From Candidatus Omnitrophota bacterium (lineage in GTDB: Bacteria > Omnitrophota > Gorgyraeia > JABMRG01 > JAFGKX01), in NCBI GenBank assembly GCA_043797125.1, contig JAZDPX010000022.1, positions 1,065 to 65,064 of the forward strand: a stretch of DNA of 64,000 nucleotides, written 5' to 3'. The notes beneath the pieces were generated by a model. The model was given only the letters and a program-made list of their open reading frames with translations, had not been told where the DNA came from and ran no database searches. Within the stretch, counting starts at the first letter, position 1. The number at the start of each line of letters is the position of its first letter. This document shows, piece by piece, positions 1 through 55,564 of the stretch. Made by a program: the position numbers and the translations under genes.

Positions 1-232
1 CAGGCACAAACCCGCAGCCAAGTTTGTAAGCCAAAGCGCCGCCGATGATAAATCCTCTTGCCTCTGCCGCGACTATCGTATCTATTTTTGCGTCTTTATA
101 TTTGTTGTGCAGCAGATCAACGACTTCTTTGAATTTGCCGCTGTTTTTAAGCAATGTCGTAATATCCCTGAAAAGTATTCCCTTTTTCGGAAAATCAGGT
201 ATGTTTCTGATATATTTTTTTAGTTCTTCCAT
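1..232 (-). CDS. apt: adenine phosphoribosyltransferase, N-terminal part (gene continues past window start)
   Basis: Reverse-strand translation from ATG at 232: [28 protein letters not shown]...[29 protein letters not shown], the typical APRT N-terminus and PRPP-binding region; not in the ORF track because it is truncated. Confidence 0.8.
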
Positions 233-234
233 GT

Positions 235-1083
235 TCACTTCCCTTTGCTCTTTGTTCTTTGCTCTGTTCCAACCAACATGTCTCTTAACTGCTCCATTGC
301 CCTGTCCTCAATCTGCCTTACCCTCTCCTTGCTTATCCTCAAGCGCTTACCGATATCTTCAAGCGTAACAGGCTCTTTGTTGTTAAGGCCAAACCTTAGC
401 ATAAGTACCTTCTTATATCGCGGTTTTAACGCGTCTATAACCTCGCTCACCTTTTCATGCTGCAGAAGTTTGCTTATATTTTCAAACGGAGATTCCGCGG
501 ATATATCTTCAACCAAATCCAATAGCTTGCCTGCTCCGTCCTCACCGATAGGTGTTTCCAGAGATGTGGGCACAGTATCCATTGCCTGTTTTATTTCTTT
601 AATCTTGGCTACATGGATGTTTAGCTTTTTCGCAATTTCACCTGTCCTTGGCTTGCGGTGCAGTTTATGTTTAAGGTGCTCAACCATCTTTCTGTACCTG
701 CTAATGGCCTCTGCCATATAAACAGGCACGCGTATGGTCTTGCCTTGCTCTGACAATGCCCTTAATATGGCTTGTTTTATCCACCAGCTCGCGTATGTTG
801 AAAACCTGTATCCTGTCCTCGGGTCATATTTTTTCACAGCCTTCATAAGGCCGAGATTGCCTTCTTCAATTAAATCCAGAAGTGGAACGCCGAATTTAGA
901 GTATCTCTTTGCAATGTTTACAACTAAGCGCAGGTTCGATTGGATCATTTTGCGTTTTGCCCTTAAATCCCCCTTTTTAATGCGCTTGGCCAGATGTTTT
1001 TCCTCTTCAAGAGTTAAAAGAGGGGCCTTATCTATATCTTTAAGATATAGTTTTATTGCTTCGAGATCTCCTACCTGCGGCAC
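235..1083 (-). CDS. RNA polymerase sigma-70 family factor (RpoD/RpoS-like, short form)
   Basis: Region 2 motif [37 protein letters not shown] and region 4.2 [19 protein letters not shown]; 282 aa without region 1.1. Confidence 0.85.
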
Positions 1084-3859: not shown

Positions 3860-5924
3860 CCCTTTCTCCTCCCTGTATCTGGCTTAGGTCTGCTATTTGT
3901 TTTACATATAACTCATTTATGTCCTTAAGCAGTTTAAGCCTGTTATTGCGTAATTGCCCGTTATCAACATTAACCATCACTTTATCGAAAAACTTATGCG
4001 TCACATCAAAAAGCGTTTCGCCGTATACTTTTGTTGCGTTACAATAGTCGCGCTGTTTAACAGGCGGGGTAATTCTTTCTTGTGCAGCCTTAAACGCCTT
4101 AAATAGCTGGGTTTCCTCGTCCGCCTCGAATAATGAGGTATCCACTGTATTAGCAAAGCTAGATACATTTCTTGTTATGTTGTTTGTTCTTTCAACAACG
4201 CAGCGCGCCTGTTCAAAATAAAACTCGCCTATTATATTACACAAAGCTGCCAATCTCAAGAAGAAATTATAAACATCGTCAAAACCGGAGGATATTACCG
4301 CAACCGTCAGATCGTTTCTAAACTTATACTGCTCAAGCATTATAACTGACAGCCTCTCCTTAAAAAACAACATGAACTCTTTCTTAAGATTTTCCTTATT
4401 TACCGCCCCGGGCGCCATATCAAATACAGCGCCAAAAATGCTTTCCAATGACAGGTTTATCTTGCCCGATACAATAATATTTATAATAGCGATGCATTGT
4501 CTGCGAAGAGCGTATAAATCCCAGTTGCCTTTGGGCTGATTGCCTGCCTTAAAATGGCATATAACAGAATCAAATTTATCGAGCAACGCCAATATTAAAC
4601 CTAATTTAGTCTGTGGCAATTTATCTTCCGCAAAGCGCGGGCAATAATGTTCTTCTATTGCCTGGGCTATTTTTTCTTCAACGCCCTCTGCTAACGCATA
4701 ATATTTTCCCATTATTCCCTGAAGGCTCGGGAATTCTCCAACCATCTGGGTCAGCAAATCTGCCTTACACAACTCGATAGCCTTAATCAGTTTCTTATAA
4801 TCCGCATCATCCAATTCAAGCGGCGTTTTAAGAAACTCGAGCAGCCTTTTTAGCCTTTGGGCCTTATCAGCATAAGAACCTAATTCCTTATGGAATATTA
4901 CGCCGTTTAATTGTTTTGTTCTTTGGGCAAGTGAAATCTGTAAATCCTCGTTATAAAAAAACAGGGCATCTTTCAATTTTGCGTCCAAAACCTGCTCGTA
5001 ATGGCGCCTTATTACGGCCTGGCGCTTTAAGTTGCCGTTTATCACAGCGATAAATCTATTCGTCAGTTTGCCTTCCTTATCCTGTAAAGGAAATATACGC
5101 TGGTTTTTTGAAGTGCTTGCAATTAAAACTTCCTGCGGCAGCTTAAGATATTGTTTGTCGAATATACCATCGATAAAATATGGGTATTCTACAAGCCCGG
5201 CAACTTCATCAAGCAATTGCTCGTTTTTGTGCCAGTTTCTTTTTGTAAGATGGTTTAAAATAATGCTTTTTCTTTCCTGGAAGCTATAAATAACATGGTG
5301 CTTTTTAAGCTTTTTAAAAAAATCTCCTGTGTTTTTTATCGTAACCTGCTGCGGGCTTAAAAGGCGATGTCCATACGTTATATTTGAAGCAAGAAGACCG
5401 CCTATGCTGCATTTAATGACTTCATCCGCGTACACTGCCAGAATCCATCTGATCGGACGGGGAAAGAATAGAACGTCGCCGTCCCAGAGCATATTTTTAT
5501 ATGTCGAAAGCGTAGGAACAACTTTTGGTATCCTATCCGCAAGCAGTTTTTTTACTAAAACCTGTTTTTTTACCTTTATCTTTTCTTTATCGCTCGCCGG
5601 TATTTCTTCTATATCTTTTACGGTTGCATCTATCCTTCTTAAAAATCCTTCCAATGCCTTTGTCGGTTTTCCACCCTTATCAAAGGCAATCTGTTTCGGA
5701 GGGCCTATTTCAATGCTGGTGTATGAATCAGGCAAGTTTTGTATATAGATGACTATTCGTCTGGGAGTAGCAAAAACCTCAGGTTTGATATCGCCAAGCT
5801 CTGCCTTACCTAATAAGGCATCTATCAGGCTTGCCTTAACCTGAGGGTCTTCGGATATGCCTGCGACAATTTTCGCCGGCAGCTCTTCGGCGCCTATCTC
5901 TAATATAAAATCTTTCTTTTTCAC
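3840..5924 (-). CDS. glyS: glycine--tRNA ligase beta subunit
   Basis: N-terminus MKKKDFILEIGAEELPAK typical of GlyS; 694 aa; directly downstream of glyQ. Confidence 0.9.
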   Translation of the reverse strand: MKKKDFILEIGAEELPAKIVAGISEDPQVKASLIDALLGKAELGDIKPEVFATPRRIVIYIQNLPDSYTSIEIGPPKQIAFDKGGKPTKALEGFLRRIDATVKDIEEIPASDKEKIKVKKQVLVKKLLADRIPKVVPTLSTYKNMLWDGDVLFFPRPIRWILAVYADEVIKCSIGGLLASNITYGHRLLSPQQVTIKNTGDFFKKLKKHHVIYSFQERKSIILNHLTKRNWHKNEQLLDEVAGLVEYPYFIDGIFDKQYLKLPQEVLIASTSKNQRIFPLQDKEGKLTNRFIAVINGNLKRQAVIRRHYEQVLDAKLKDALFFYNEDLQISLAQRTKQLNGVIFHKELGSYADKAQRLKRLLEFLKTPLELDDADYKKLIKAIELCKADLLTQMVGEFPSLQGIMGKYYALAEGVEEKIAQAIEEHYCPRFAEDKLPQTKLGLILALLDKFDSVICHFKAGNQPKGNWDLYALRRQCIAIINIIVSGKINLSLESIFGAVFDMAPGAVNKENLKKEFMLFFKERLSVIMLEQYKFRNDLTVAVISSGFDDVYNFFLRLAALCNIIGEFYFEQARCVVERTNNITRNVSSFANTVDTSLFEADEETQLFKAFKAAQERITPPVKQRDYCNATKVYGETLFDVTHKFFDKVMVNVDNGQLRNNRLKLLKDINELYVKQIADLSQIQGGERDGNNGS

Positions 5925-6212: not shown

Positions 6213-7049
6213 TCAACGTTCCGTATACGCCTTCGCGCAGCCTATCGCCAGCTTCCTTACTCTCGCAATATAAGCCGCCCTCTCATTCACGCTTATCGCT
6301 CCCCGCGCGTCAAGCAGATTAAATACATGGGATGTCTTTAACATATTCTCGTAAGCGGGTAAAAGTAAATTTTCTTTTAAAAGCCTGCTTGATTCAGCTT
6401 CATACATATCAAATAATTTCAAAAGCATTGCCGGATCGGTTTTGTGAAAATTATATTCAGAGCCTTCCTTTTCGCCTTGCCTGTGCATATCAGCGTAGGT
6501 TGTATCCTTATTCCATTTTATCTTAAACACATCATCCACGCCCTGCAGGAACATGCATATGCGCTCTAAGCCGTATGTCAATTCGCATGGTATAACCTTA
6601 AGCGGTATTGAGCCCATCTGCTGAAAATAAGTGTACTGGGTAATTTCAAGGCTGTCTAACCATACCTCCCAGCCTAAACCGCTTGCCCCTAGAGTCGGTG
6701 ATTCCCAATCATCCTCGACAAACCTTATATCATGCTCTTTTCTCTTTATGCCTAAAAACTCAAGGCTGCTAAGATACAAATCCTGTATGCCTTTAGGATT
6801 AGGCTTAATAATCACCTGATATTGATAATATCTCTGCATCCTAAGGGGATTATCAGCATATCTTCCGTCGGTGGGCCTTCTTGAAGGCTGGACAAAAGCA
6901 ACCTTCCAAGGCTTATCATCCAATGATTTAAAAAAAGTCATAGGATGAAACGTGCCTGCGCCTACCTCTATATCCTGTGGTTGTGCGATGACACAGCCCT
7001 GTTTTTTCCAAAACTCATCAAGCTTGCTTATTAGATCCTGAAAGTACAT
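6213..7049 (-). CDS. glyQ: glycine--tRNA ligase alpha subunit
   Basis: [19 protein letters not shown]... highly conserved GlyQ; 278 aa. Confidence 0.93.
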
Positions 7050-9020: not shown

Positions 9021-11276
9021 TTAAGAATCTCTATCGTCACTTTTATTGCTTTTCTTAGGCTGCCTACCGCCATTCGGGTATTCAACCCTGACGTGGTATA
9101 TTCCGACTAAAATCCTGCTGAACGTCCTTGCGATTATATCAATGTCACGCAAGGTCAACTCGCATCCATCCATCTGCCTATCAATAAATTTATTGTTTAT
9201 TATTCTCCTGACTAATTCCTCTAAATGCGCCGGAGTGGGGTCGCTCAATGTTCTTGAAGCTGCTTCAACTGAATCAGCCAAAAGAATAATGGCGGTTTCC
9301 TTTGTCTGGGGCTTGGGGCCCGGGTATCTGAAGCCCTCCTCAGCAACTGCGTCGTCACTGCTTTCTGTCTCCAGCGCCTTTTGATAAAAATAATATATTA
9401 ACCCACAACCATGGTGCTGTTCTATCATGTCAATGATCGGCATGGGCAGCTTATATTTTTTAGCTAGATCAACGCCGTCTTTCACATGATTAGTTATAAT
9501 AAGAGCGCTCATGTGCGGCGTGAGGCTAGTATGGGTTGTGGTGGTCTTGGGCTGGTTTTCGCTAAAATACTCGGCTTTTGCGATCTTTCCGATGTCATGA
9601 TAATACGCGCCAACGCGCGCCAAAAGGGAATTTGCGCCTATTGCTTCACAAGCTGCCTCAGCTAGGTTTCCTACCACCAGGCTGTGATGATAGGTCCCTG
9701 GAGCTTTGTTCACCATATCTTTCAGCAGTGGGCGATTTAAATCAATTAGCTCCAAAAGACCAATGTCTGTCGTTAAATGAAACATCCTCTCAAGTATCGG
9801 CAATAAAAATAGGGCTACTGCCGCGGAAACTATTCCAGAACTCACGCCCCACAGCCCTTCTTTTAAAAAAACTGCTGATTCCAAATCATTCATTAACCCT
9901 AATGATGATATGCATATAAAATTAACCAGGCCTACATATAACCCCGCCTGAAACAAATGGGTCCTGCGCCTGGAGTTTTTAACGGCAAATGCGCCGACGA
10001 TTGCCCCGATGAAAGTTACTATAAAGATATTCGTATCTATTCCGCCCATCATCGAGATTATAACGCTCATTATTATTACCAAAGGAAAAACAACGGTGTT
10101 TCCGATAAGCAAAGTAAAAAGCATGGATACGCTTGCGGAAGGAATAAAATAACTCGGTTGCGGAGAAAGCATTATTGCCTTTGCTACGACTGCCATAAAA
10201 AGTATTAAGACGCACATAAGCATTATTGATGAATTATTATTGAGCATCTTTGGTTCAAACAACTGCGCGTATATAATTAATATAAAAAATAACAGCAAGA
10301 GTATCATGCTAAAACTAAATATAAATGAAAAATTATAGGCTTTTCCGGATGATGTCTCTATTGCCGTAAGCATGGCAAGGGTCCGGCTGCTGGCCCTTGT
10401 GCCCTTAAAGATTATTATCTCGCCTTCCTTTACTTCATGCCTGTTATAAAAAGGCTCAACCTGCTCCTGCGCCGCCTTGCGCGCCATGTTTGTTTCTTTT
10501 TCGCCATAAGTGAGGTTAGCAGCTATTCTTTCCGATAAAACATTTATTAATGCCTTTTTGACAGGATGCGGGCAATCCAGTTTTTCATTTATGTAATTGG
10601 CAAACTCTTTTTTAACAAATGAGGATACCAATATTTCCTTAACCTCAATATGCTGGGTTGCCTTTTCATCTGCCTCGCTTTTTATTGTTATCTTCTCTAC
10701 AGACTTTGAAAGAAGTTTCTCTTTGTCCTCATCCGATATTATGGGGCGCGACATAACTGAATCTATCGCTTGAATCGATCCCTGCCGCAGCCGGGCTGTA
10801 TCCTTAAATGAAACCAACTCCGTAAGGTCGTTTAATCCTAAATTTATATTAAACATGCCCTTAAGCTCGGCGTAAGTCTCGTCACTAATTACAGCTTGCG
10901 AATGCGCGATTACATCAATGCTGTCAAAAAATACATTAACCTGATTTTGCACGTCCTTGTTAGCCCTTAAATCCAGAATAAATATATCAAGGACTTCCGA
11001 GAAAGCCTTTTTTTGCGCAGCCTGTGTCCTTACTTTGTCAATTCCCCACATATAAGCAAAGTTAAATGGGGCGTATATATCTTTGGTTGAAACATCGCCT
11101 ACATTTAACTGGCCCCTGGCAGGAAATTCGCCGAGATGAACAATGGCCAGGATAAGCAAGGCTGTTATAAAAAGCGGCACAATAATAAAAGCGGCCTTTT
11201 TGAGGGCCGGCATCTTCTGGACCTTCTTAAATATGCTCGGGACCTTAATCCTTGATTTTATCCTTATCTTTCTCAT
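9021..11276 (-). CDS. 7TM-receptor with intracellular HD hydrolase domain (PgpH/YqfF-like, possible c-di-AMP phosphodiesterase)
   Basis: N-terminal signal/TM plus extracellular region, 7 TM helices, C-terminal HD domain (HHSLVVGNLAEAA...YYHDIGK, HHG); sits in the phoH-yqfF-ybeY-dgkA order known from Bacillus. Confidence 0.8.
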   Translation of the reverse strand: MRKIRIKSRIKVPSIFKKVQKMPALKKAAFIIVPLFITALLILAIVHLGEFPARGQLNVGDVSTKDIYAPFNFAYMWGIDKVRTQAAQKKAFSEVLDIFILDLRANKDVQNQVNVFFDSIDVIAHSQAVISDETYAELKGMFNINLGLNDLTELVSFKDTARLRQGSIQAIDSVMSRPIISDEDKEKLLSKSVEKITIKSEADEKATQHIEVKEILVSSFVKKEFANYINEKLDCPHPVKKALINVLSERIAANLTYGEKETNMARKAAQEQVEPFYNRHEVKEGEIIIFKGTRASSRTLAMLTAIETSSGKAYNFSFIFSFSMILLLLFFILIIYAQLFEPKMLNNNSSIMLMCVLILFMAVVAKAIMLSPQPSYFIPSASVSMLFTLLIGNTVVFPLVIIMSVIISMMGGIDTNIFIVTFIGAIVGAFAVKNSRRRTHLFQAGLYVGLVNFICISSLGLMNDLESAVFLKEGLWGVSSGIVSAAVALFLLPILERMFHLTTDIGLLELIDLNRPLLKDMVNKAPGTYHHSLVVGNLAEAACEAIGANSLLARVGAYYHDIGKIAKAEYFSENQPKTTTTHTSLTPHMSALIITNHVKDGVDLAKKYKLPMPIIDMIEQHHGCGLIYYFYQKALETESSDDAVAEEGFRYPGPKPQTKETAIILLADSVEAASRTLSDPTPAHLEELVRRIINNKFIDRQMDGCELTLRDIDIIARTFSRILVGIYHVRVEYPNGGRQPKKSNKSDDRDS

Positions 11277-44717: not shown

Positions 44718-44937
44718 TTACAGCTATTGTTTTACCTACTTTTGCCATTTCACCTTCTTTGCATAAAATTTCTTTTAAGATGCCGCCTGTAGGTGCAGGC
44801 ACATTGAACGTTGCCTTATCTGTAATCATCTCAACCAGGTCATCGCCTTCGTTGACCTTTGCACCTTCATCAACATGCCAGAACGATACTGTTGCTTCAA
44901 TAACGCCCTCGCCTATTTCAGGTAACACTACTTTCAT
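44698..44937 (-). CDS. standalone lipoyl-attachment domain protein
   Basis: 79 aa; LVEMITDKATFNVPAPTGG matches the lipoyl-lysine motif; overlaps the lipA stop. Confidence 0.7.
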   Translation of the reverse strand: MKVVLPEIGEGVIEATVSFWHVDEGAKVNEGDDLVEMITDKATFNVPAPTGGILKEILCKEGEMAKVGKTIAVIETKGE

Positions 44938-45790
44938 ATACCTCCATTGCCTCCTTGTATGCTTCCCTGGCCTTATACGAACTTCGTATAAACGGCCCGC
45001 TTAAAATCGATTTAAATCCTATGCACTCAGCAAAACTTTTGTAAAATTCGAACTGCTCTGGCGTAATGTATTCCTGCACATCCACACAAGCGTGATCAGG
45101 TTTTAGATACTGGCCTATTGTTAATACGTCGCAATCTACGCATTTTAAATCCTTAATAGCTGCTAAAACTTCCTGCCTTGTCTCGCCAAGTCCTAGTATT
45201 ATACCACTTTTTGTTAAAATGTCACTGTTGTTTTTTATAAATTTTAAAACAAAAAGAGAATCCTCATATTTTGCCTGCGGCCTTATTTTGCCGTACAGGC
45301 GCGGGACGGTCTCAATATTGTGCGCAAAAACATCGGGCCGTACCTGTATTATTTTGTTCAACAGAGTTTTGTCTGCTTTAAAATCAGGAGTCAGAATTTC
45401 TATTTTTATCCCGGGATTAAAAACCCTTACAGCTTCAATTGTATTTACAAAATACTCAGCTCCCGCGTCATCAATGTCATCGCGCGTAACTGATGTAATA
45501 ACTACATACTTAAGGCCTAGGTCTTTTACCGCATGGGCTATTCTTTGAGGCTCATCTGAATCCGGCGCCTGGGGCATACCGGTTTTCACTGAACAAAAAC
45601 CGCAGTTTCTAGTGCAGGTATTGCCCAGTATCATAAATGTAGCTTCCCTGTTTTGGAAGCACTCGCCGATATTCGGGCACCTTGCGCTCTGGCATACGGT
45701 GTGCAGGTTGTGGTTTTTTAGAAGCTCGTTCATCCGCTCTATCGCTTCTGTCGGCAAGGGCCTCTTGAGCCACTCCGGAAATGCGTTCAT
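44918..45790 (-). CDS. lipA: lipoyl synthase
   Basis: CPNIGEC auxiliary cluster motif and radical-SAM CTRNCGFC. Confidence 0.93.
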   Translation of the reverse strand: MNAFPEWLKRPLPTEAIERMNELLKNHNLHTVCQSARCPNIGECFQNREATFMILGNTCTRNCGFCSVKTGMPQAPDSDEPQRIAHAVKDLGLKYVVITSVTRDDIDDAGAEYFVNTIEAVRVFNPGIKIEILTPDFKADKTLLNKIIQVRPDVFAHNIETVPRLYGKIRPQAKYEDSLFVLKFIKNNSDILTKSGIILGLGETRQEVLAAIKDLKCVDCDVLTIGQYLKPDHACVDVQEYITPEQFEFYKSFAECIGFKSILSGPFIRSSYKAREAYKEAMEVYESSVT

Positions 45791-45819
45791 TTGTTAAAAC
45801 TTTTATCCTTCCATGTTTA

Positions 45820-45877
45820 CAGGCTTAAGGCCTTGCCGAAAAAACACGCTTCAGATTTGGGCAAAGCCTTAAGCCTG
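45820..45877. repeat. hairpin derived from MITE-family-B termini (caggcttaaggccttgcc...ggcaaagccttaagcctg)
   Basis: Carries the acacgcttcagatttgggcaa core shared with 27020-27060, 33320-33360 and 49850-49897. Confidence 0.7.
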
Positions 45878-45918
45878 TAATCATAAACAAGAGTATGTGT
45901 TTAGCATAACTTGTTATT

Positions 45919-46197
45919 TTAATGCGCCTGGGCGATTCTATGAATAACTTCGGAGATAAATGTCTGATATTTAATACCGAGCTGGCGGGCTCTATGTTTA
46001 ATGCTTGTCAGGTCGCGGCTGTTTACCCTGATATTTAAAACTGCGTCTTTTTTTCTTGCCGCCACAGCCTTAGCAATAATTGCCAATTCATCCTTGCCTA
46101 CATCTATATACTCGCCCTTTAAAAGGCTCTCTTCAATAGCTTTCTCTTGTCTTGTGAGATTGATTTTCCCCGTGTTATTTTTCATTTGTGTAGACAA
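45919..46197 (-). CDS. BrnA-like ribbon-helix-helix antitoxin family protein (orphan; no BrnT partner found)
   Basis: C-terminal NIRVNSRDLTSIKHRARQLGIKYQTFISEVIHR is the BrnA/COG3514 signature. Confidence 0.55.
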   Translation of the reverse strand: MSTQMKNNTGKINLTRQEKAIEESLLKGEYIDVGKDELAIIAKAVAARKKDAVLNIRVNSRDLTSIKHRARQLGIKYQTFISEVIHRIAQAH

Positions 46198-46391
46198 TTG
46201 TATATTATTATGCTGCTGATATCAAGTTTTATTCCGAAAATACGTAATAGTTCAGCCACTGTAAGTATCTCGACTCGGACGTAGCTGAGGCTTAAGCCTA
46301 CCTACCGGCAGGCAGGCTGTCTATCGTCTAGGGCGGGTCCTGTCTGGCGCCAATATATAACGGGGTTAATACTAACATAACAGTATTATTT

Positions 46392-46410
46392 GTCAAGAAA
46401 AACTCTTGAC
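46392..46410 (+). promoter_or_regulatory. palindromic operator candidate GTCAAGA-aaaac-TCTTGAC overlapping the -35 of the lexA-MTase promoter
   Basis: Perfect 7-bp inverted arms; -35 TTGACC (46406-46411), 17-bp spacer, -10 TATATT (46429-46434), ATG at 46442 (leaderless-like). Confidence 0.4.
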
Positions 46411-46441
46411 CTTTCGGTTTATTTTCGGTATATTGTAAACT

Positions 46442-48322
46442 ATGCTAAGCGATCAAAAACTAACGAAGAAACAAAAAGAGATATTAGATTATATCCAAAA
46501 TTTCATAGAGGATAACGACTATTCCCCATCATTGCAAGAAATTGCTAATCATTTTAAACGCAAATCTATAGCTACAGTTCATCAGCATATCGCTGCCTTA
46601 AGAGATAAACATTACTTAAACTTTGAGGAAAACCAGCCGCGCTCAATAAGTGTCTATGGTAAAAAAGATTCAAAAGACCAAATAACCCTGCCGCTTTTAG
46701 GCACTATAGCCGCCGGCACGCCTATTGAAGCCGTCGAAGACCTTGAGCCCATAACTGTATCTAAATCTTTGCTTTCAAGGTCCGGCAGGCACTATGTGTT
46801 AAAAGTAAAGGGTAACAGCATGATAAACGAAGGGATATTCAACGGAGACTTTGTAATTATCCGTGAACAACCTACGGCAGAGCAAGGCGATACGGTTGTA
46901 GCAATCATAAATGGCAATGAAGCTACACTTAAAAAATTTTATACAGAAAAAGATTTGTTTGTGCTGAAGTCAGCCAACCCGGACGTTCCCTCGATTGCAA
47001 CTAAGGAATTAGTCGTAAGAGGCAAGGTAATAAGTGTTATTAGAAATTTAAATAACAGCAAAAGCGAAATAGAAAAAATAGCTGACAGTAAAAAAAGGCG
47101 AATCGATTATTCATGGGATTTTAGAGGAGAAAACACCAAACCATATACACACGGTTTTCATAATTATCCTGCAATGTTCATACCGCAACTCGCCAGACGT
47201 CTTATATTAAACTGCAGTCAAAGCGGCGATACAATCTGTGATATTTTTTGTGGCAGTGGCACAGCTTTAGTTGAAAGTAGGTTGTTAGGCAGAAATGCTT
47301 ATGGCATAGAACTAAATCCGCTCGCTAGTTTGATTGCTAAAGTAAAAACAACGCCATTAAACCCAAATACCGTACAAAAAGAATATGTTTCCTTATTAAC
47401 CAATATTAATAAATATAAACCTAAAAAGGCAGAATTGCCTTTATTTTTCAATATAAATTTTTGGTATAAGGAAAATGCAATATACGAATTAACAAAAATA
47501 AAAAAATGTATTGATGACATAAAAAATAAAGACATAAAAAATTTCTTTTTAGTGGCTTTTAGCGAAACAGCCAGATTTACATCGAATATGCGAAATGGCG
47601 AATTTAAACTCTTTAGAATTCCTCAAGAAAGGCTAAAAGACTATAATCCAGATGTTGTATCTATATTCAGAAAACGCGCCGAAAACAACACAGAAAGAAT
47701 GAAAGAATTCTATAATGATGTCGATAATAATACATGGGTTAAAATTATAGAGGGCGACTCCACCAAAAGATATGACATAAAAGATGAATCTATGGACTGC
47801 ATAATTACATCCCCTCCTTATGGAGATAGCAGAACAACTGTTGCATATGGACAGTTCTCGCGCTTATCTTTACAATGGTTAAATATGCTATCTGATGATG
47901 AAATGCAAATTGACAAAAAATTATTGGGTGGGGTATTTAATTCTGATATTCAGAATAATCTAAAATCCAAGTCTTTGGCAAGAGTTCTTAATATAATTGC
48001 AGAATATGATTCAAAAAGAGCTAAAGAAGTATTAGCTTTTTACATAGATTTGAATAAAGCAATGGCTCAAGCTTATAGGATATTAAAACGATATAAGTAT
48101 TTTTGTGTTGTTATTGGCAATAGGACTGTTAAAAAAGTAAATCTGCCGACTGATTTTATTGTATCTGAATTAGGAGATAATTTGAGGCTTCATACAGTAG
48201 ACATTATCGTAAGAAATATACCCAACAAGCGTATGCCATTAAAAAACTCTCCCACTAACGTCCCTGGAGAGCTCGAAAAGACTATGCAAAAAGAAAGCAT
48301 AGTTATTTTGCAAAAATTATAA
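46442..48322 (+). CDS. LexA-like repressor (wHTH + S24 autopeptidase) fused in frame to a D12-class DNA methyltransferase (N4C/N6A type, SPPY motif)
   Basis: Residues 1-205: LexA DNA-binding domain LTKKQKEILDYIQNFIEDNDYSPSLQEIANH, cleavage-site-like AAG, catalytic GNSM...K; residues 225-626: HNYPAMFIPQL, FCGSGT (motif I), GIELNP, and DCIITSPPYGDS (motif IV); no stop or start codon at the junction. Confidence 0.7.
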   Translation: MLSDQKLTKKQKEILDYIQNFIEDNDYSPSLQEIANHFKRKSIATVHQHIAALRDKHYLNFEENQPRSISVYGKKDSKDQITLPLLGTIAAGTPIEAVEDLEPITVSKSLLSRSGRHYVLKVKGNSMINEGIFNGDFVIIREQPTAEQGDTVVAIINGNEATLKKFYTEKDLFVLKSANPDVPSIATKELVVRGKVISVIRNLNNSKSEIEKIADSKKRRIDYSWDFRGENTKPYTHGFHNYPAMFIPQLARRLILNCSQSGDTICDIFCGSGTALVESRLLGRNAYGIELNPLASLIAKVKTTPLNPNTVQKEYVSLLTNINKYKPKKAELPLFFNINFWYKENAIYELTKIKKCIDDIKNKDIKNFFLVAFSETARFTSNMRNGEFKLFRIPQERLKDYNPDVVSIFRKRAENNTERMKEFYNDVDNNTWVKIIEGDSTKRYDIKDESMDCIITSPPYGDSRTTVAYGQFSRLSLQWLNMLSDDEMQIDKKLLGGVFNSDIQNNLKSKSLARVLNIIAEYDSKRAKEVLAFYIDLNKAMAQAYRILKRYKYFCVVIGNRTVKKVNLPTDFIVSELGDNLRLHTVDIIVRNIPNKRMPLKNSPTNVPGELEKTMQKESIVILQKL

Positions 48323-48324
48323 AA

Positions 48325-49035
48325 TTATACCAACCGTCTTAATTCTTGAAAACATTTTTCTAATTTACTTTTTCTCACCCTAAAGGCTGTGCCATGATTC
48401 CTTACGGTTCCGTTTTCTCTTAAATGCATTCTGAAATCTACAGTTATTATATCTTTTGCAATCATGTTCTTAAACGATTCAAAACTAAACCCCTTAAGAA
48501 AATAGGCCTCGTTAAAGCAAAACTCTTCTCGTCCGTTATCTTTCATTCTTGCATCTGCTTTGACTACAATAAGTTTTGGAATTTTTTGCAAAAACCTTTC
48601 TTTGAGTTGCTCTGCCACCCAATATATATCAATATCTTCTTTATCCGAAGTGACTTTTATTCGTCCTTTTTCAACTTCTAATTTCAATGATTGTGGATTA
48701 AAGGTACTACTATTAATTGTACAATATAATTCTTTTTGTCTTAAATTGTCACGTTTTTTATAACCAAACCTTTCTAACAATGACCTATCTCTTTGCCCGC
48801 CTTCTGGCTGCGGCTCGCATGTAAATAGAGTCAATAACGATGGGGAATCTTTTCTGAAAGCTTTTAATTCTACGCCGCCGTCTAAATCCGGCAAGGGAAT
48901 ATTATTTTCCTTAAGACCTAGATAGGTTTCAAGTGTATAGCCAATACCAGTATCGCTGCTTCGAAGGCTCTCTACATATCCTTTATCCGCTATCTTTTTT
49001 AATTCTTGTTTAAATTCCGCAATAGTTTTATACAT
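48325..49035 (-). CDS. Type II restriction endonuclease candidate, MvaI/BcnI-like
   Basis: 236 aa, convergent and 2 bp from the MTase stop; KGY...NNIPLPDLDGGVELKAF...LLTLF...ERFGYKK...HGTAFRV pattern recalled as MvaI/BcnI family (from memory, not searched). Confidence 0.45.
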   Translation of the reverse strand: MYKTIAEFKQELKKIADKGYVESLRSSDTGIGYTLETYLGLKENNIPLPDLDGGVELKAFRKDSPSLLTLFTCEPQPEGGQRDRSLLERFGYKKRDNLRQKELYCTINSSTFNPQSLKLEVEKGRIKVTSDKEDIDIYWVAEQLKERFLQKIPKLIVVKADARMKDNGREEFCFNEAYFLKGFSFESFKNMIAKDIITVDFRMHLRENGTVRNHGTAFRVRKSKLEKCFQELRRLV

Positions 49036-49075
49036 CTAAGATTTTACATACCTTACCGAAGCGCTACACACAAGT

Positions 49076-49236
49076 GAGGTTTTTGCAATGCGAGGTGCAT
49101 TAGAAAATTTTTGCCAAATGTACTTTTAGGACTTATGGCGAGGAGCGGCTAAATTTAGATATTTGGGAAAGCGAGCGAGCCATAAGTCCAAAAGTACGGC
49201 AAAAATTTTCAGCACCGAGCATTGCAAAAACCGAAC
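49076..49236. mobile_element. MITE-family-A copy (TIRs ~TTTGCAATGCGAGGTGC / GCACCGAGCATTGCAAA) between the REase and lipB, overlapping the lipB 3' end
   Basis: Shares both termini with 6049-6210; the third copy (50110-50326) has a degenerate left end (gcaaaatgacc); interior is a palindrome acttatggcg...gccataagt. Confidence 0.65.
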
Positions 49237-49829
49237 TTGCTAATGAGTTGCTGTTTTAGCTGTTCCTTATCAACAGCGAGTGCCTGCATTGAAGTAACTT
49301 TTATATCTTTAAAACCGCATGGATTTATCCAGCCAAACGGAGTTAAATCGCAGTTGATATTAATAGCAACGCCGTGAAAGGTGACCCAACCGGAAACCCC
49401 GATACCGATTGACGCGATCTTTCCTTGCTCGGTCCAAACTCCGGTTTTGCCTTCAATCTTAAAACCTTCTATGCCATATTCTTTTAAAAGACCTATTACC
49501 ATATCTTCAAGCCGATGCAAATGCTTATGCACGTCTTTGTCGCGCTTTTTAAGGTCGAGTATCGGATAAATTACAATCTGTCCGGGGCCATGATATGTAA
49601 TATCCCCGCCCCTGTCTGTTTCAACAAGCTGCACGCTTTTACTTTTGAGGAACTCTTCGGAGACAAGAAGATTTTTCTTTGTGCCGGAACGGCCGATAGT
49701 TATAACGGGCTTATGCTCTGTGATAAGAATATGCTCACAAGCTTCGCCTTTTTTGACCTTAGCAACAATATCCTTCTGCAGCTTTAAGCATTCTTTATAA
49801 TCGGTTATTCCTAATTCTAGCACTTTCAT
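49209..49829 (-). CDS. lipB: octanoyltransferase LipB
   Basis: RGGDITYHGPGQ motif; 206 aa. Confidence 0.88.
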   Translation of the reverse strand: MKVLELGITDYKECLKLQKDIVAKVKKGEACEHILITEHKPVITIGRSGTKKNLLVSEEFLKSKSVQLVETDRGGDITYHGPGQIVIYPILDLKKRDKDVHKHLHRLEDMVIGLLKEYGIEGFKIEGKTGVWTEQGKIASIGIGVSGWVTFHGVAININCDLTPFGWINPCGFKDIKVTSMQALAVDKEQLKQQLISKFGFCNARC

Positions 49830-54310: not shown

Positions 54311-55564
54311 TTAACACTGCCTCGGGTCCGTTATCTTTCCTTCTAACGCCGACGCCGCTACCGTCGCAGGCGACGCCAGATAAATAAACGCGTCTGGGTT
54401 GCCCATCCTGCCCTTAAAATTCCTGTTAGCGGTTGAGATTACGTTTTCACCGTCTGCAGGAACGCCATGATGCGTGCCGACGCACGGCCCGCAGCCCGGA
54501 GTGACTACGTTTGCGCCTGCTTTAATAAATATTTCTATGAGGCCTTTTTTTATAGCGTCAAGATATATGCTTTTCGAAGCTGGCGCCACTATCATCCTTA
54601 CGCTCTTTGCTATTTTTCTGCCCTTAAGAATATTAGCGGCAATTACAAGATCCTCCAGCCTTCCGTTTGTGCATGTTCCTAGCACAGCTTCGTCTATGCG
54701 CTTGCCTAATAATTCTGATATATCGGATACATTATCAACGGTATGCGGCTTTGCTATCTGCGGCTTTAATTTACTTACATCATATCTTTTTACTGCTGCG
54801 TACTGTGCGCCTTTATCCGGATACACTCCATTTGCCTTGGCCTTTTTGTCAATCATCTTAAGCCAGTCAAATACCTTTTTATCCGCGTACATAATGCCGA
54901 ATTTAGCGCCCATCTCTACCGCCATATTAGAGATGGTAAAACGCGCATCAACACTTAAAGAATCTATTGCGCTGCCGGTAAATTCTACCGCATTATAAGT
55001 GCAGCCGTCTGCGCCTAAATCGCCGATTATGTGCAGTATTATATCCTTTGAATAGACGCCCTTTGGGGGCTTACCGTCAACTATTATTTTTACTGTCTCG
55101 GGAACTTTAAACCAATTTTTTCCACTGGCCAGCGTTATCGCCAAATCCGTAGAACCAAAACCTGTGGATAAAAGGCCCAATGCGCCGTATGTGCAGGTAT
55201 GCGAATCTGCCCCGACAACCAAATCTCCCGGGCGAATATTCCCAGATTCTAAAACTACCTGGTGACAAACGCCGCACCCTATATCATATAAGCACAGCTT
55301 ATTTTTATCTGCAAACTGCCTCATCTTTTTGTGAATCGCTGAAACGCCTATGTTCGGAGACGGAGCGCTGTGGTCAATAACCATGCAGAATTTATTTTTC
55401 CCAGAAAGTTTTTTAATCCCAAGCCTGTTTAACGCGTCTATAATCAGGCCGCTTGTTCCGTCCTGGCCCATGCAGAAATCAACATTGCAAAGCGCGTAAT
55501 CTCCCGCTTTAAGGTCTTTGCCGGAGTGTGTACTCAATATTTTTTCAGCTACTGTTTTTTTCAT
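54311..55564 (-). CDS. 3-isopropylmalate/homoaconitate dehydratase large subunit (LeuC-like)
   Basis: MKKTVAEKILSTHSG...; aconitase-family Fe-S cysteines (CGPC); 417 aa. Confidence 0.8.
   Translation of the reverse strand: MKKTVAEKILSTHSGKDLKAGDYALCNVDFCMGQDGTSGLIIDALNRLGIKKLSGKNKFCMVIDHSAPSPNIGVSAIHKKMRQFADKNKLCLYDIGCGVCHQVVLESGNIRPGDLVVGADSHTCTYGALGLLSTGFGSTDLAITLASGKNWFKVPETVKIIVDGKPPKGVYSKDIILHIIGDLGADGCTYNAVEFTGSAIDSLSVDARFTISNMAVEMGAKFGIMYADKKVFDWLKMIDKKAKANGVYPDKGAQYAAVKRYDVSKLKPQIAKPHTVDNVSDISELLGKRIDEAVLGTCTNGRLEDLVIAANILKGRKIAKSVRMIVAPASKSIYLDAIKKGLIEIFIKAGANVVTPGCGPCVGTHHGVPADGENVISTANRNFKGRMGNPDAFIYLASPATVAASALEGKITDPRQC

Follow-up and report, generated by a model that had tools for sequence, protein, structure and literature searches.

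A DNA methyltransferase fused to a complete LexA in a Type II restriction-modification module of Candidatus Omnitrophota, a plausible damage-responsive autoregulator

Introduction

The control of Type II restriction-modification (R-M) systems is known so far to be exerted by C (controller) proteins, by methylases fused to a short helix-turn-helix (HTH) domain and by antisense RNAs. The Type II methyltransferases that regulate their own synthesis through an N-terminal HTH include M.SsoII, M.Ecl18kI, M.EcoRII, M.MspI and M.ScrFIA, which are C5 methylases with an HTH of about 70 residues and no protease. References on these enzymes are listed in a review (PMC3874152). Here, we analyzed a stretch of 64,000 nucleotides from Candidatus Omnitrophota (contig JAZDPX010000022.1 of assembly GCA_043797125.1; this whole stretch is referred to below as the window), in which a gene of an R-M module encodes a DNA methyltransferase that is preceded, in the same reading frame, by an entire LexA. 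It has long been asked how an R-M system spares its host while it becomes established, during DNA repair and under stress. Judging from sequence comparisons, we consider it reasonably probable that the LexA part of this protein is dedicated to repressing the methyltransferase gene from which it is made, and is not the SOS master regulator of the cell; its damage-triggered self-cleavage would derepress methylation.

Like the SsoII/EcoRII-type enzymes, the fusion carries a DNA-binding domain at the N-terminus of a methyltransferase, has a predicted operator at its own promoter and follows the logic of negative autoregulation. Indeed, the sister methyltransferases of two related loci (designated here, as are all related loci, by L and a number; L004 and L007) use the simple SsoII/EcoRII-like form, with an HTH_17/MerR domain. 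Unlike the SsoII/EcoRII-type enzymes, however, the regulator is a full LexA of about 200 residues with a dimerization/autopeptidase domain, the methyltransferase belongs to PF01555 and not to PF00145, and the same LexA regulator is found attached to C5, D12, gamma and beta/permuted amino-methylases. As this regulator is a LexA with an intact cleavage site, repression should be reversible by proteolysis. With the LexA of the SOS response (3k2z, 1jhf, 3jso, 8trg), the fusion shares the winged HTH, the hinge, the Ala-Gly site, the Ser-Lys dyad, a score above the TIGR00498 cutoff and a gene that appears to be self-repressed from a site within the promoter. It differs from SOS LexA in its 420-residue C-terminal enzyme, in being tied to a restriction endonuclease gene, in its apparent horizontal mobility and in having no detectable regulon (one site in 64 kb). 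The fusion is SsoII/EcoRII-class logic built of LexA parts, and a strict member of neither group.

Results and Discussion

The fusion gene encodes an entire LexA

The features considered in this work are collected in Table 1. An earlier note on this DNA, made from the sequence alone, had described a complete LexA with an Ala-Gly-like cleavage region, the serine of GNSM and a downstream lysine, followed in a single open reading frame (ORF) by a methyltransferase with the motifs FCGSGT and SPPY, and all of these were found at the positions that it had given. The identity of the N-terminal part was then examined against profiles, all of which agreed: LexA_DNA_bind (PF01726) matches residues 5-67 (1.2e-15), Peptidase_S24 matches residues 84-197 (4.6e-27) and TIGR00498, the NCBIfam equivalog model of lexA, matches residues 5-203 over all of its 203 positions, with 181.6 bits against a cutoff of 111. 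N6_N4_Mtase is also matched (2.6e-20). The closest solved structure is that of Thermotoga maritima LexA (3k2z, 2.8e-33), in an alignment that reaches the final residue of 3k2z. Pfam, TIGR00498 and this alignment thus support the note's central claim, namely a methyltransferase fused to an entire LexA with intact autopeptidase residues. In one respect the protein departs from the LexA family, in that it is not a stand-alone protein of about 200 residues but comprises 626 residues, with a C-terminal methyltransferase of 420. The same protein, identical in sequence, is listed at NCBI as MFH0732049.1, 'transcriptional repressor LexA', from a Candidatus Omnitrophota metagenome-assembled genome (MAG).

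Table 1 Positions of the features discussed, in coordinates of the window
Feature	Position	Strand	Remarks
LexA-methyltransferase fusion gene, 626 aa	46442..48322	+	single frame without internal stop
Domain map of the fusion	residues 1-67; 68-83; 84-202; 203-224; 225-626		in this order: winged HTH; hinge; S24 autopeptidase/dimerization; flexible linker; DNA methyltransferase
Ala91-Gly92 codons, LexA self-cleavage bond	46712-46717	+	sequence reading; alignment with E. coli A84-G85
Ser126 codon (in GNSM), S24 nucleophile	46817-46819	+	sequence reading; aligns with E. coli S119
Lys164 codon, partner of Ser126	46931-46933	+	sequence reading; aligns with E. coli K156
DNA methyltransferase domain	47114..48319	+	PF01555; motif I FCGSGT 47246-47263; motif IV SPPY 47810-47821
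Promoter of the fusion gene	46406..46434	+	TTGACC (46406-46411), 17-nt spacer, TATATT (46429-46434); scan score 10/12
Predicted operator, direct repeat TTTCGG-TTTAT-TTTCGG (TTTC-N7-TTTC)	46412..46428	+	11-bp period; fills the whole 17-bp -35/-10 spacer
Palindrome GTCAAGA-N5-TCTTGAC	46392..46410		perfect; sole perfect copy in the window
Minus-strand promoter	TTGACA 46396-46391, 16 nt, TAGTAT ending 46369	-	scan score 10/12 with TG extension
MvaI/BcnI-family Type II restriction endonuclease gene, 236 aa	48325..49035	-	converges on the methyltransferase gene; 2 bp between stop codons
Long stable hairpin	49068..49240	-	between lipB stop (49209) and endonuclease start (49035); nested inverted repeats

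An AlphaFold2 model of the fusion, built on 40 homologues, has a mean predicted local distance difference test (pLDDT) score of 76.7 and contains three folded parts, with low-confidence linkers at residues 66-76 and 203-216; as modeled, it shows domains that are independent of each other and connected by flexible linkers. The N-terminal part of the model superimposes on the C-domain of Mycobacterium tuberculosis LexA (6a2q) with a template modeling (TM) score of 0.86 and 1.9 Å. Taken with the conservation of the relevant residues, this similarity of fold supports a predicted competence of the S24 domain for self-cleavage. No in-frame ATG, GTG or TTG is found between the S24 domain and Met245, and as Met245 itself lies inside the methyltransferase core, a separate methylase cannot be made by internal initiation. 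A weak promoter-like site at 47082-47110 was considered as an internal source of free methyltransferase and rejected, as no in-frame start lies downstream of it.

Conservation of the fusion

A run of seven A residues lies in the linker (47090-47096), and lexA and the methyltransferase could in principle be separate genes that were joined by a sequencing or assembly frameshift at this homopolymer. We consider this to have next to no probability. When 5.8 billion proteins were searched, at least 120 independent protein clusters of about 621 residues matched 99% of the length of the query, with 55-81% identity and the same four Pfam domains, and the sequences derive from NCBI, JGI, ENA and Logan assemblies. 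The single frame is, moreover, kept in about 80 metagenome loci despite sequence divergence of 20-45%, residues R219, W225 and D226 of the linker are invariant in an alignment of 40 members, and a separate methyltransferase would have no start codon. The homologue clusters and the frame-keeping loci rule out the artefact, and the database search for LexA-methyltransferase fusions that the earlier note had called for shows the fusion to be genuine and conserved. By these comparisons, the fusion appears both real and under selection.

The source names of the homologues include Omnitrophota, Ratteibacteria, Nealsonbacteria, Portnoybacteria, other Patescibacteria and Cloacimonadota, and a scan of species-representative genomes added a Planctomycetales MAG. 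Ala91-Gly92, Ser126 and Lys164 are invariant in 40/40 aligned family members, as are the methyltransferase motifs FCGSGT and SPPY. When the wider set of long LexA-fusion representatives was considered, the Ala-Gly bond was present in 56/56, the serine in 56/56 and the lysine in 55/56. Among 72,556 plasmid and 50,697 phage records, no match covered 80% or more of the fusion protein, and the viral contigs of IMG/VR yielded unfused methyltransferases only, at 33-48% identity.

Literature searches aimed at LexA-methyltransferase fusions found no description of them, although a 2017 study of the SOS network in Patescibacteria fell outside their reach. The author of the earlier note had known of no fusion to a whole autocleaving repressor, and this agrees with the literature searched and with the plasmid and phage records. 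The design is thus widespread yet apparently undescribed. Fusions of about 620 residues are named 'transcriptional repressor LexA' or 'SOS regulatory protein LexA' at NCBI and JGI (P0001, P0003, P0018, P0020, P0064, P0072, P0118 and others). This should be considered when SOS regulons are inventoried or LexA-binding motifs inferred in candidate phyla, as both can be contaminated by such annotations.

A direct repeat in the promoter spacer is the predicted operator

The earlier note had placed a near-consensus promoter, with its -10 about 7 nt from the ATG, in front of the fusion gene, and this promoter was recovered by the scan (Table 1). Between the end of the -10 and the ATG there are 7 nt in the window and 7-10 nt in close relatives, such that the mRNA is predicted to have no leader or almost none. 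C-protein controllers typically have leaderless transcripts and operators that are embedded in the promoter.

The spacer of this promoter is filled by a direct repeat, for which a position weight matrix was built from the fusion family, with 120-mers from the same loci serving as controls. The matrix gives a median of 22 bits in promoters versus -2.6 bits in the control 120-mers, and 64 of the 70 unique related promoters score above the control 99th percentile. Across the approximately 590 kb of flanking DNA of the related loci, only two other sites reach 16 bits. In the window, the promoter operator scores 24.2 bits, the next site 15.8, and no further site exceeds 12. An antisense operator-like site within the gene (47668-47684) was rejected as a product of Lys/Glu-rich coding sequence.

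The two half-repeats change together from locus to locus (CGG/CGG, CTA/CTA, CGA/CGA, GTTCGG/GTTCGG, ATCGGG/ATCGGG), and they pair with the recognition helix: T[VI]H[QE]H is found with TTTCGG, TAH[HYF][HY] with TTTC[TG]A, and FSTVHEH with ATCGGG, a D12 fusion included. In L108 (gene at 3986-5884; endonuclease gene co-directional), where the recognition helix is the E. coli-like SPTAVNDHLKAL, the promoter spacer within the upstream 110 nt contains, at the same position as the operator, a perfect SOS box of the E. coli/gammaproteobacterial type, CTGTATTTTTATACAG (CTGT-N8-ACAG). The GTTC-N7-GTTC direct repeat is an established form of the LexA box in Alphaproteobacteria (PMC4951493), a form that the repeat of the window shares with SOS LexA, and L047 and L059 carry exactly GTTC-N7-GTTC at the operator. 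It is the combination of position, exclusivity, co-variation and precedent that leads us to predict the direct repeat to be the operator. The co-variation of helix and operator also provides a natural series for the evolution of LexA specificity and of tandem-repeat binding.

The exclusivity of the operator bears on another explanation, according to which the fusion is the genuine SOS master repressor of the organism, controlling recA, uvrA and so on, and simply carries a methyltransferase domain. The protein does pass the equivalog cutoff of TIGR00498 and is named LexA by NCBI and JGI, no second lexA is present within the 64-kb window, and the recognition helix of the fusion is of the common STVHxH type that is shared with standalone LexAs. 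Nonetheless, the operator occurs once in the window, at the gene's own promoter, and in the related loci it is found almost only at methyltransferase promoters; the gene travels with a restriction endonuclease across unrelated contexts and phyla; the LexA clade to which it belongs is fused to four methyltransferase families and lies apart from standalone LexAs in a rough tree (see below); and the module of the window breaks up a lipB-lipA cluster. We thus regard a master repressor as quite improbable, and continue to favor a repressor dedicated to the methyltransferase gene.

The earlier note had also pointed to a palindrome overlapping the -35. The palindrome is indeed perfect and does overlap this hexamer; as an operator, however, it is not conserved in close relatives, in which the direct repeat is conserved instead. 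Its left arm is absent in L042-L044, where the LexA part is 79-81% identical, and the palindrome is absent even from relatives that are 75-81% identical. It has a single perfect copy in the window, with near matches there being no more frequent than chance, and it was accordingly rejected as an operator. It was also flagged by a scan for intrinsic terminators, a role that was rejected because no plus-strand gene reads into it and no T-run follows on the minus strand. Judged from its sequence, the palindrome is most simply accounted for by the -35 hexamers of two divergent promoters lying back to back; the minus-strand promoter is listed in Table 1. In leader-containing relatives, GTCAA(G/T) is found 2-15 nt before the ATG (L125 977-982, L126 388-393, L127 2988-2993 and many others). 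When read on the opposite strand, this is TTGAC(A/T) followed after 16-17 nt by TATATT or TACTAT, i.e., an antisense promoter face-to-face with the sense promoter, as in TTGACT-16-TATATT (L125) and TTGACA-16-TATATT (L127). Some loci (L049, L066 and L077) have, along with the antisense promoter, another copy of the operator in inverted orientation.

One LexA clade is fused to four methyltransferase families

The LexA part alone was used as the query of a full HMMER scan of 1.84 billion representatives. The best matches are N-terminal LexA modules with extensions of 80-700 residues, while stand-alone LexAs are confined to matches of about 45% identity or less. A DNA methyltransferase is carried by 25 of the 30 long representatives scanned, and these enzymes come from four unrelated families, namely PF01555 (beta and permuted), PF02086 (D12), PF02384/PF07669 (gamma, some with TaqI_C) and PF00145 (C5). 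In a neighbor-joining tree, 48 of 50 fused LexA parts fall in one clade with only five others, although it should be noted that this tree is a rough one without support values.

One locus each of a C5, a D12, a gamma and a beta fusion also showed a common upstream cassette, in which a DnaA-box-like TGTGGATAA and, usually, TTGAC precede a 17-bp direct-repeat spacer and a -10, with GTCAA before the ATG in three of the four. An exact DnaA-box 9-mer (TTATCCACA / TGTGGATAA) lies within 150 nt upstream of the LexA-methyltransferase start in 39 of 82 related loci, whereas the other approximately 596 kb contain 10 copies, against about 7.5 expected by chance. The 9-mer abuts or replaces the -35 (for example, in L076, L097, L103, L122 at 2924-2932, L125 at 907-916, L126 at 317-325 and L127 at 2921-2929) and shows no co-variation with operator type. 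It is absent from the promoter of the fusion in the window, where its sole copy lies at 55163. The 9-mer may represent a DnaA input to methylase expression. In L065, a second unit of DnaA box and TTTCGGTAAATTTTCGG is found at 6972-7007, 1.1 kb downstream of the fusion gene, and suggests that another gene is under the same kind of control.

The N-terminal position is not reserved for LexA. Sister methyltransferases in L003-L007 (e.g., L004 5614-7212 and L007 5569-7209) are 53-56% identical to the fusion over residues 225-626 and have the same convergent MvaI/BcnI endonuclease, and carry, instead of LexA, an N-terminal domain of about 130 residues of the HTH_17/MerR-excisionase type. The N-terminus of the methyltransferase can therefore be considered a slot for an autoregulator, of which LexA is one occupant. 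From this, one might argue that the LexA part is a mere dimeric autorepressor, a larger counterpart of the HTH of the SsoII/EcoRII-type enzymes, with self-cleavage having no physiological role or answering to a signal other than RecA. Such a reading draws on the fact that an unrelated domain fills the same slot, which suggests that simple autoregulation suffices for this R-M family, and on the operator evidence, which speaks for repression alone and is silent on cleavage. The cleavage bond and the Ser/Lys dyad have, however, been kept although the LexA parts are only about 45-55% identical, and this across four families of methyltransferase partners, a pattern that would be difficult to account for had cleavage not been selected; the S24 domain, furthermore, models closely on LexA C-terminal domains that are cleavage-competent (6a2q, as above). 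We thus consider plain autorepression unlikely, and prefer an autorepressor that is opened by its own cleavage.

The methyltransferase and its endonuclease partner

The methyltransferase had been labeled 'D12-class' in the earlier note. This label could not be kept, as PF02086 (D12) gave no match at E ≤ 0.01 and motif IV is SPPY rather than DPPY or NPPY. Only PF01555 matches, in two stretches of permuted order, with motif I preceding the SPPY motif IV, and the enzyme is thus not of the D12/Dam class. A fold search for the methyltransferase class returned Trm11-like and generic Rossmann methyltransferases only, with no solved permuted-type DNA methyltransferase among them. Three relatives are named cytosine-N4-specific by JGI, distant phage and viral relatives are annotated as 'similar to PspGI methylase' and 'N4-cytosine Mtase', and unfused relatives (38-46% identity) are found on plasmids of Geobacillus, lactobacilli and Lactococcus, one of them adjoining an annotated MvaI/BcnI endonuclease. 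The methyltransferase is probably an N4-cytosine enzyme of the CCWGG type, this type being suggested by partner endonucleases that are MvaI-like in the window and EcoRII-C-like in L010, MvaI and EcoRII both being cutters of CCWGG. Within the window, the ratio of observed to expected sites is 0.98 for CCWGG and 1.29 for CCSGG, such that neither is depleted, which is uninformative either way on specificity.

The endonuclease gene, which the earlier note had recognized as MvaI/BcnI-like, matches PF15515 (MvaI_BcnI) at 4e-50, R.MvaI (2oa9) at 2.8e-20 and R.BcnI (2odh) at 1.4e-16, and its D50...E56-x-K58 (PD-ExK-type) is aligned with the D...ExK segment of R.MvaI. A gene of this type lies directly downstream in 74 of the 83 fused loci, convergent in all save one and usually overlapping by 4 bp, while L010, a relative of 72% identity, has an EcoRII-C nuclease in the endonuclease position. 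This linkage upholds the description of the locus as a Type II R-M module. The module resembles the MvaI/BcnI/PspGI-type systems, which recognize CCWGG or CCSGG, in its PF15515 endonuclease with D...ExK, its SPPY amino-methyltransferase and its tail-to-tail genes; unlike the module, the characterized systems use stand-alone methylases.

In 35 related loci, including the closest ones (L001, L043 and L045), an HTH_3 gene of about 74 residues abuts the endonuclease gene, upstream of it and co-oriented. By analogy, this arrangement is that of a C protein, and the relatives thus resemble C-protein-controlled R-M systems. The window, however, has no C gene: the spacer at 49036-49208 contains no ORF of useful size and a long hairpin occupies the position. 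In addition, the LexA module is predicted to control the methyltransferase and not the endonuclease.

Proposed mechanism

Building on the observed architecture and its conservation, on the geometry of operator and promoter and on the intact catalytic and cleavage residues, we propose the following course. A dimer of the fusion would bind TTTC-N7-TTTC in the spacer of its own promoter, where it would occlude RNA polymerase, and the resulting negative autoregulation would set the level of the methyltransferase while allowing a fast methylase burst when the module enters a naive cell. When RecA filaments form, after self-restriction of under-methylated DNA or upon damage-repair synthesis, the S24 domain would cut Ala91-Gly92 and so detach the DNA-binding domain. 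The promoter would then be derepressed, the S24-methyltransferase fragment and newly made protein would raise methylation, and the stronger convergent transcription, running head-on into the endonuclease gene, may dampen the latter. The outcome would be a methylation feedback loop that operates when the chromosome is cut or repaired, a Type II counterpart of restriction alleviation. The earlier note had suggested that cleavage would be linked either to R-M expression or to release of the methyltransferase; of the two, release is imprecise, as the cut at Ala91-Gly92 would free a DNA-binding domain of 91 residues and the methyltransferase would stay on the S24 dimerization domain.

Several points weigh against this proposal and should be considered. 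After cleavage of E. coli LexA, both fragments are degraded and, if the S24-methyltransferase fragment were likewise degraded, methylation could fall rather than rise. The 420-residue C-terminal cargo raises the question of steric fit to docking in the groove of the RecA filament. The pairing of recognition helices with operators is partly confounded by shared ancestry. Neither CCWGG nor CCSGG is depleted in the window, which therefore lends no confirmation to the predicted recognition site, and the C gene that could account for control of the endonuclease in many relatives has no counterpart there. Finally, our data span the 64-kb window and the related loci, from which a separate housekeeping lexA and operator-free SOS genes elsewhere in the genome cannot be demonstrated. 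We infer, rather than observe, that the repeat is bound, that cleavage in vivo depends on RecA, that the cleaved fragment is active and that methylation rises as a result; of these, the last is the least secure.

The opposite direction would make of the fusion a suicide switch, in which damage or phage leads to cleavage, the methyltransferase fragment is degraded, methylation drops and the endonuclease kills the cell, in the manner of abortive infection or post-segregational killing. In E. coli, the fragments of cleaved LexA are indeed targets of proteases, the C-terminus that the cut is predicted to create, ...TIAA, is similar to a ClpX-type tag, and some of the related loci lie in defense islands, beside an OLD nuclease or AbiEii. 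Cleavage would, however, also derepress a near-consensus promoter, such that synthesis rises at the same time, and nothing points to instability of the 535-residue C-terminal fragment. We consider such a switch very unlikely and keep to cleavage that boosts methylation.

In Type I systems, restriction alleviation relies on degradation of HsdR by ClpXP after DNA damage, which protects the chromosome from the cell's own restriction enzyme. The likeness is a functional analogy only, as derepression of a methylase upon SOS induction is predicted here, with entirely different components. We know of no restriction-alleviation mechanism that has been established for Type II systems, and the module, if it acts as proposed, would represent the first mechanism of this kind. 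It would, moreover, add a post-translational, damage-responsive input to the control of R-M systems and show a selfish or defense module wired directly to the RecA/SOS signal. The scale is considerable, with hundreds of metagenome clusters, four methyltransferase families, several phyla and a common promoter cassette. We put forward, tentatively, a broader proposal, in which the portable cassette of promoter, direct-repeat operator and cleavable LexA, often with a DnaA-box-like 9-mer and an antisense promoter, would be a general damage-sensing controller of at least four unrelated families of Type II methyltransferases in uncultivated bacteria (Patescibacteria, Omnitrophota and others), with RecA-triggered self-cleavage boosting methylation when the chromosome is damaged or under-modified.

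Genomic setting and neighboring features

In the window, the module sits between lipB (49209-49829) and lipA (44918-45790), in a lipoate/2-oxoacid-dehydrogenase cluster. The neighboring genes vary across the related loci and include OLD-family nucleases, AbiEii, homing endonucleases and glycosyltransferase clusters, with some of these settings being defense islands. As the flanking genes vary by locus and the phyla are mixed, the module appears to be mobile and to have been inserted between lipB and lipA.

The hairpin in the lipB-endonuclease spacer (Table 1) is a nested palindrome of about 170 nt that fills most of this spacer and, as minus-strand RNA, has a folding energy of -82.3 kcal/mol (z = -9.6). 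The outer arm (49071-49098) repeats, in inverted orientation, the final approximately 28 nt of lipB (49212-49239). The hairpin probably serves to insulate the endonuclease gene from lipB or to terminate transcription between them, or it could have been left behind by the insertion event. Across 45500-49500, Rfam and tRNA scans returned nothing above threshold; the SSRC8_2 hit, with 19.9 bits versus a cutoff of 72, falls on this hairpin.

On the other side of the module, the interval 45791-46345 contains a CopG/BrnA-antitoxin-like gene of 92 residues (45919-46197, minus strand) with no visible toxin partner. It is flanked by a hairpin with 29-nt arms (45813-45884) and by a GC-rich stretch (approximately 46270-46345), both of which contain GGCTTAAGCC. 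The gene was rejected as a component of the module because no homologue is found in any related locus, and it is probably separate cargo of the same lipA-lipB insertion.

In L011 and L012, a minus-strand ORF of 122 residues (9237-9605) lies upstream of the C and endonuclease genes and encodes a LexA DNA-binding domain only, 43% identical to residues 5-71 of the fusion. This ORF could represent a non-cleavable competitor repressor or a remnant.

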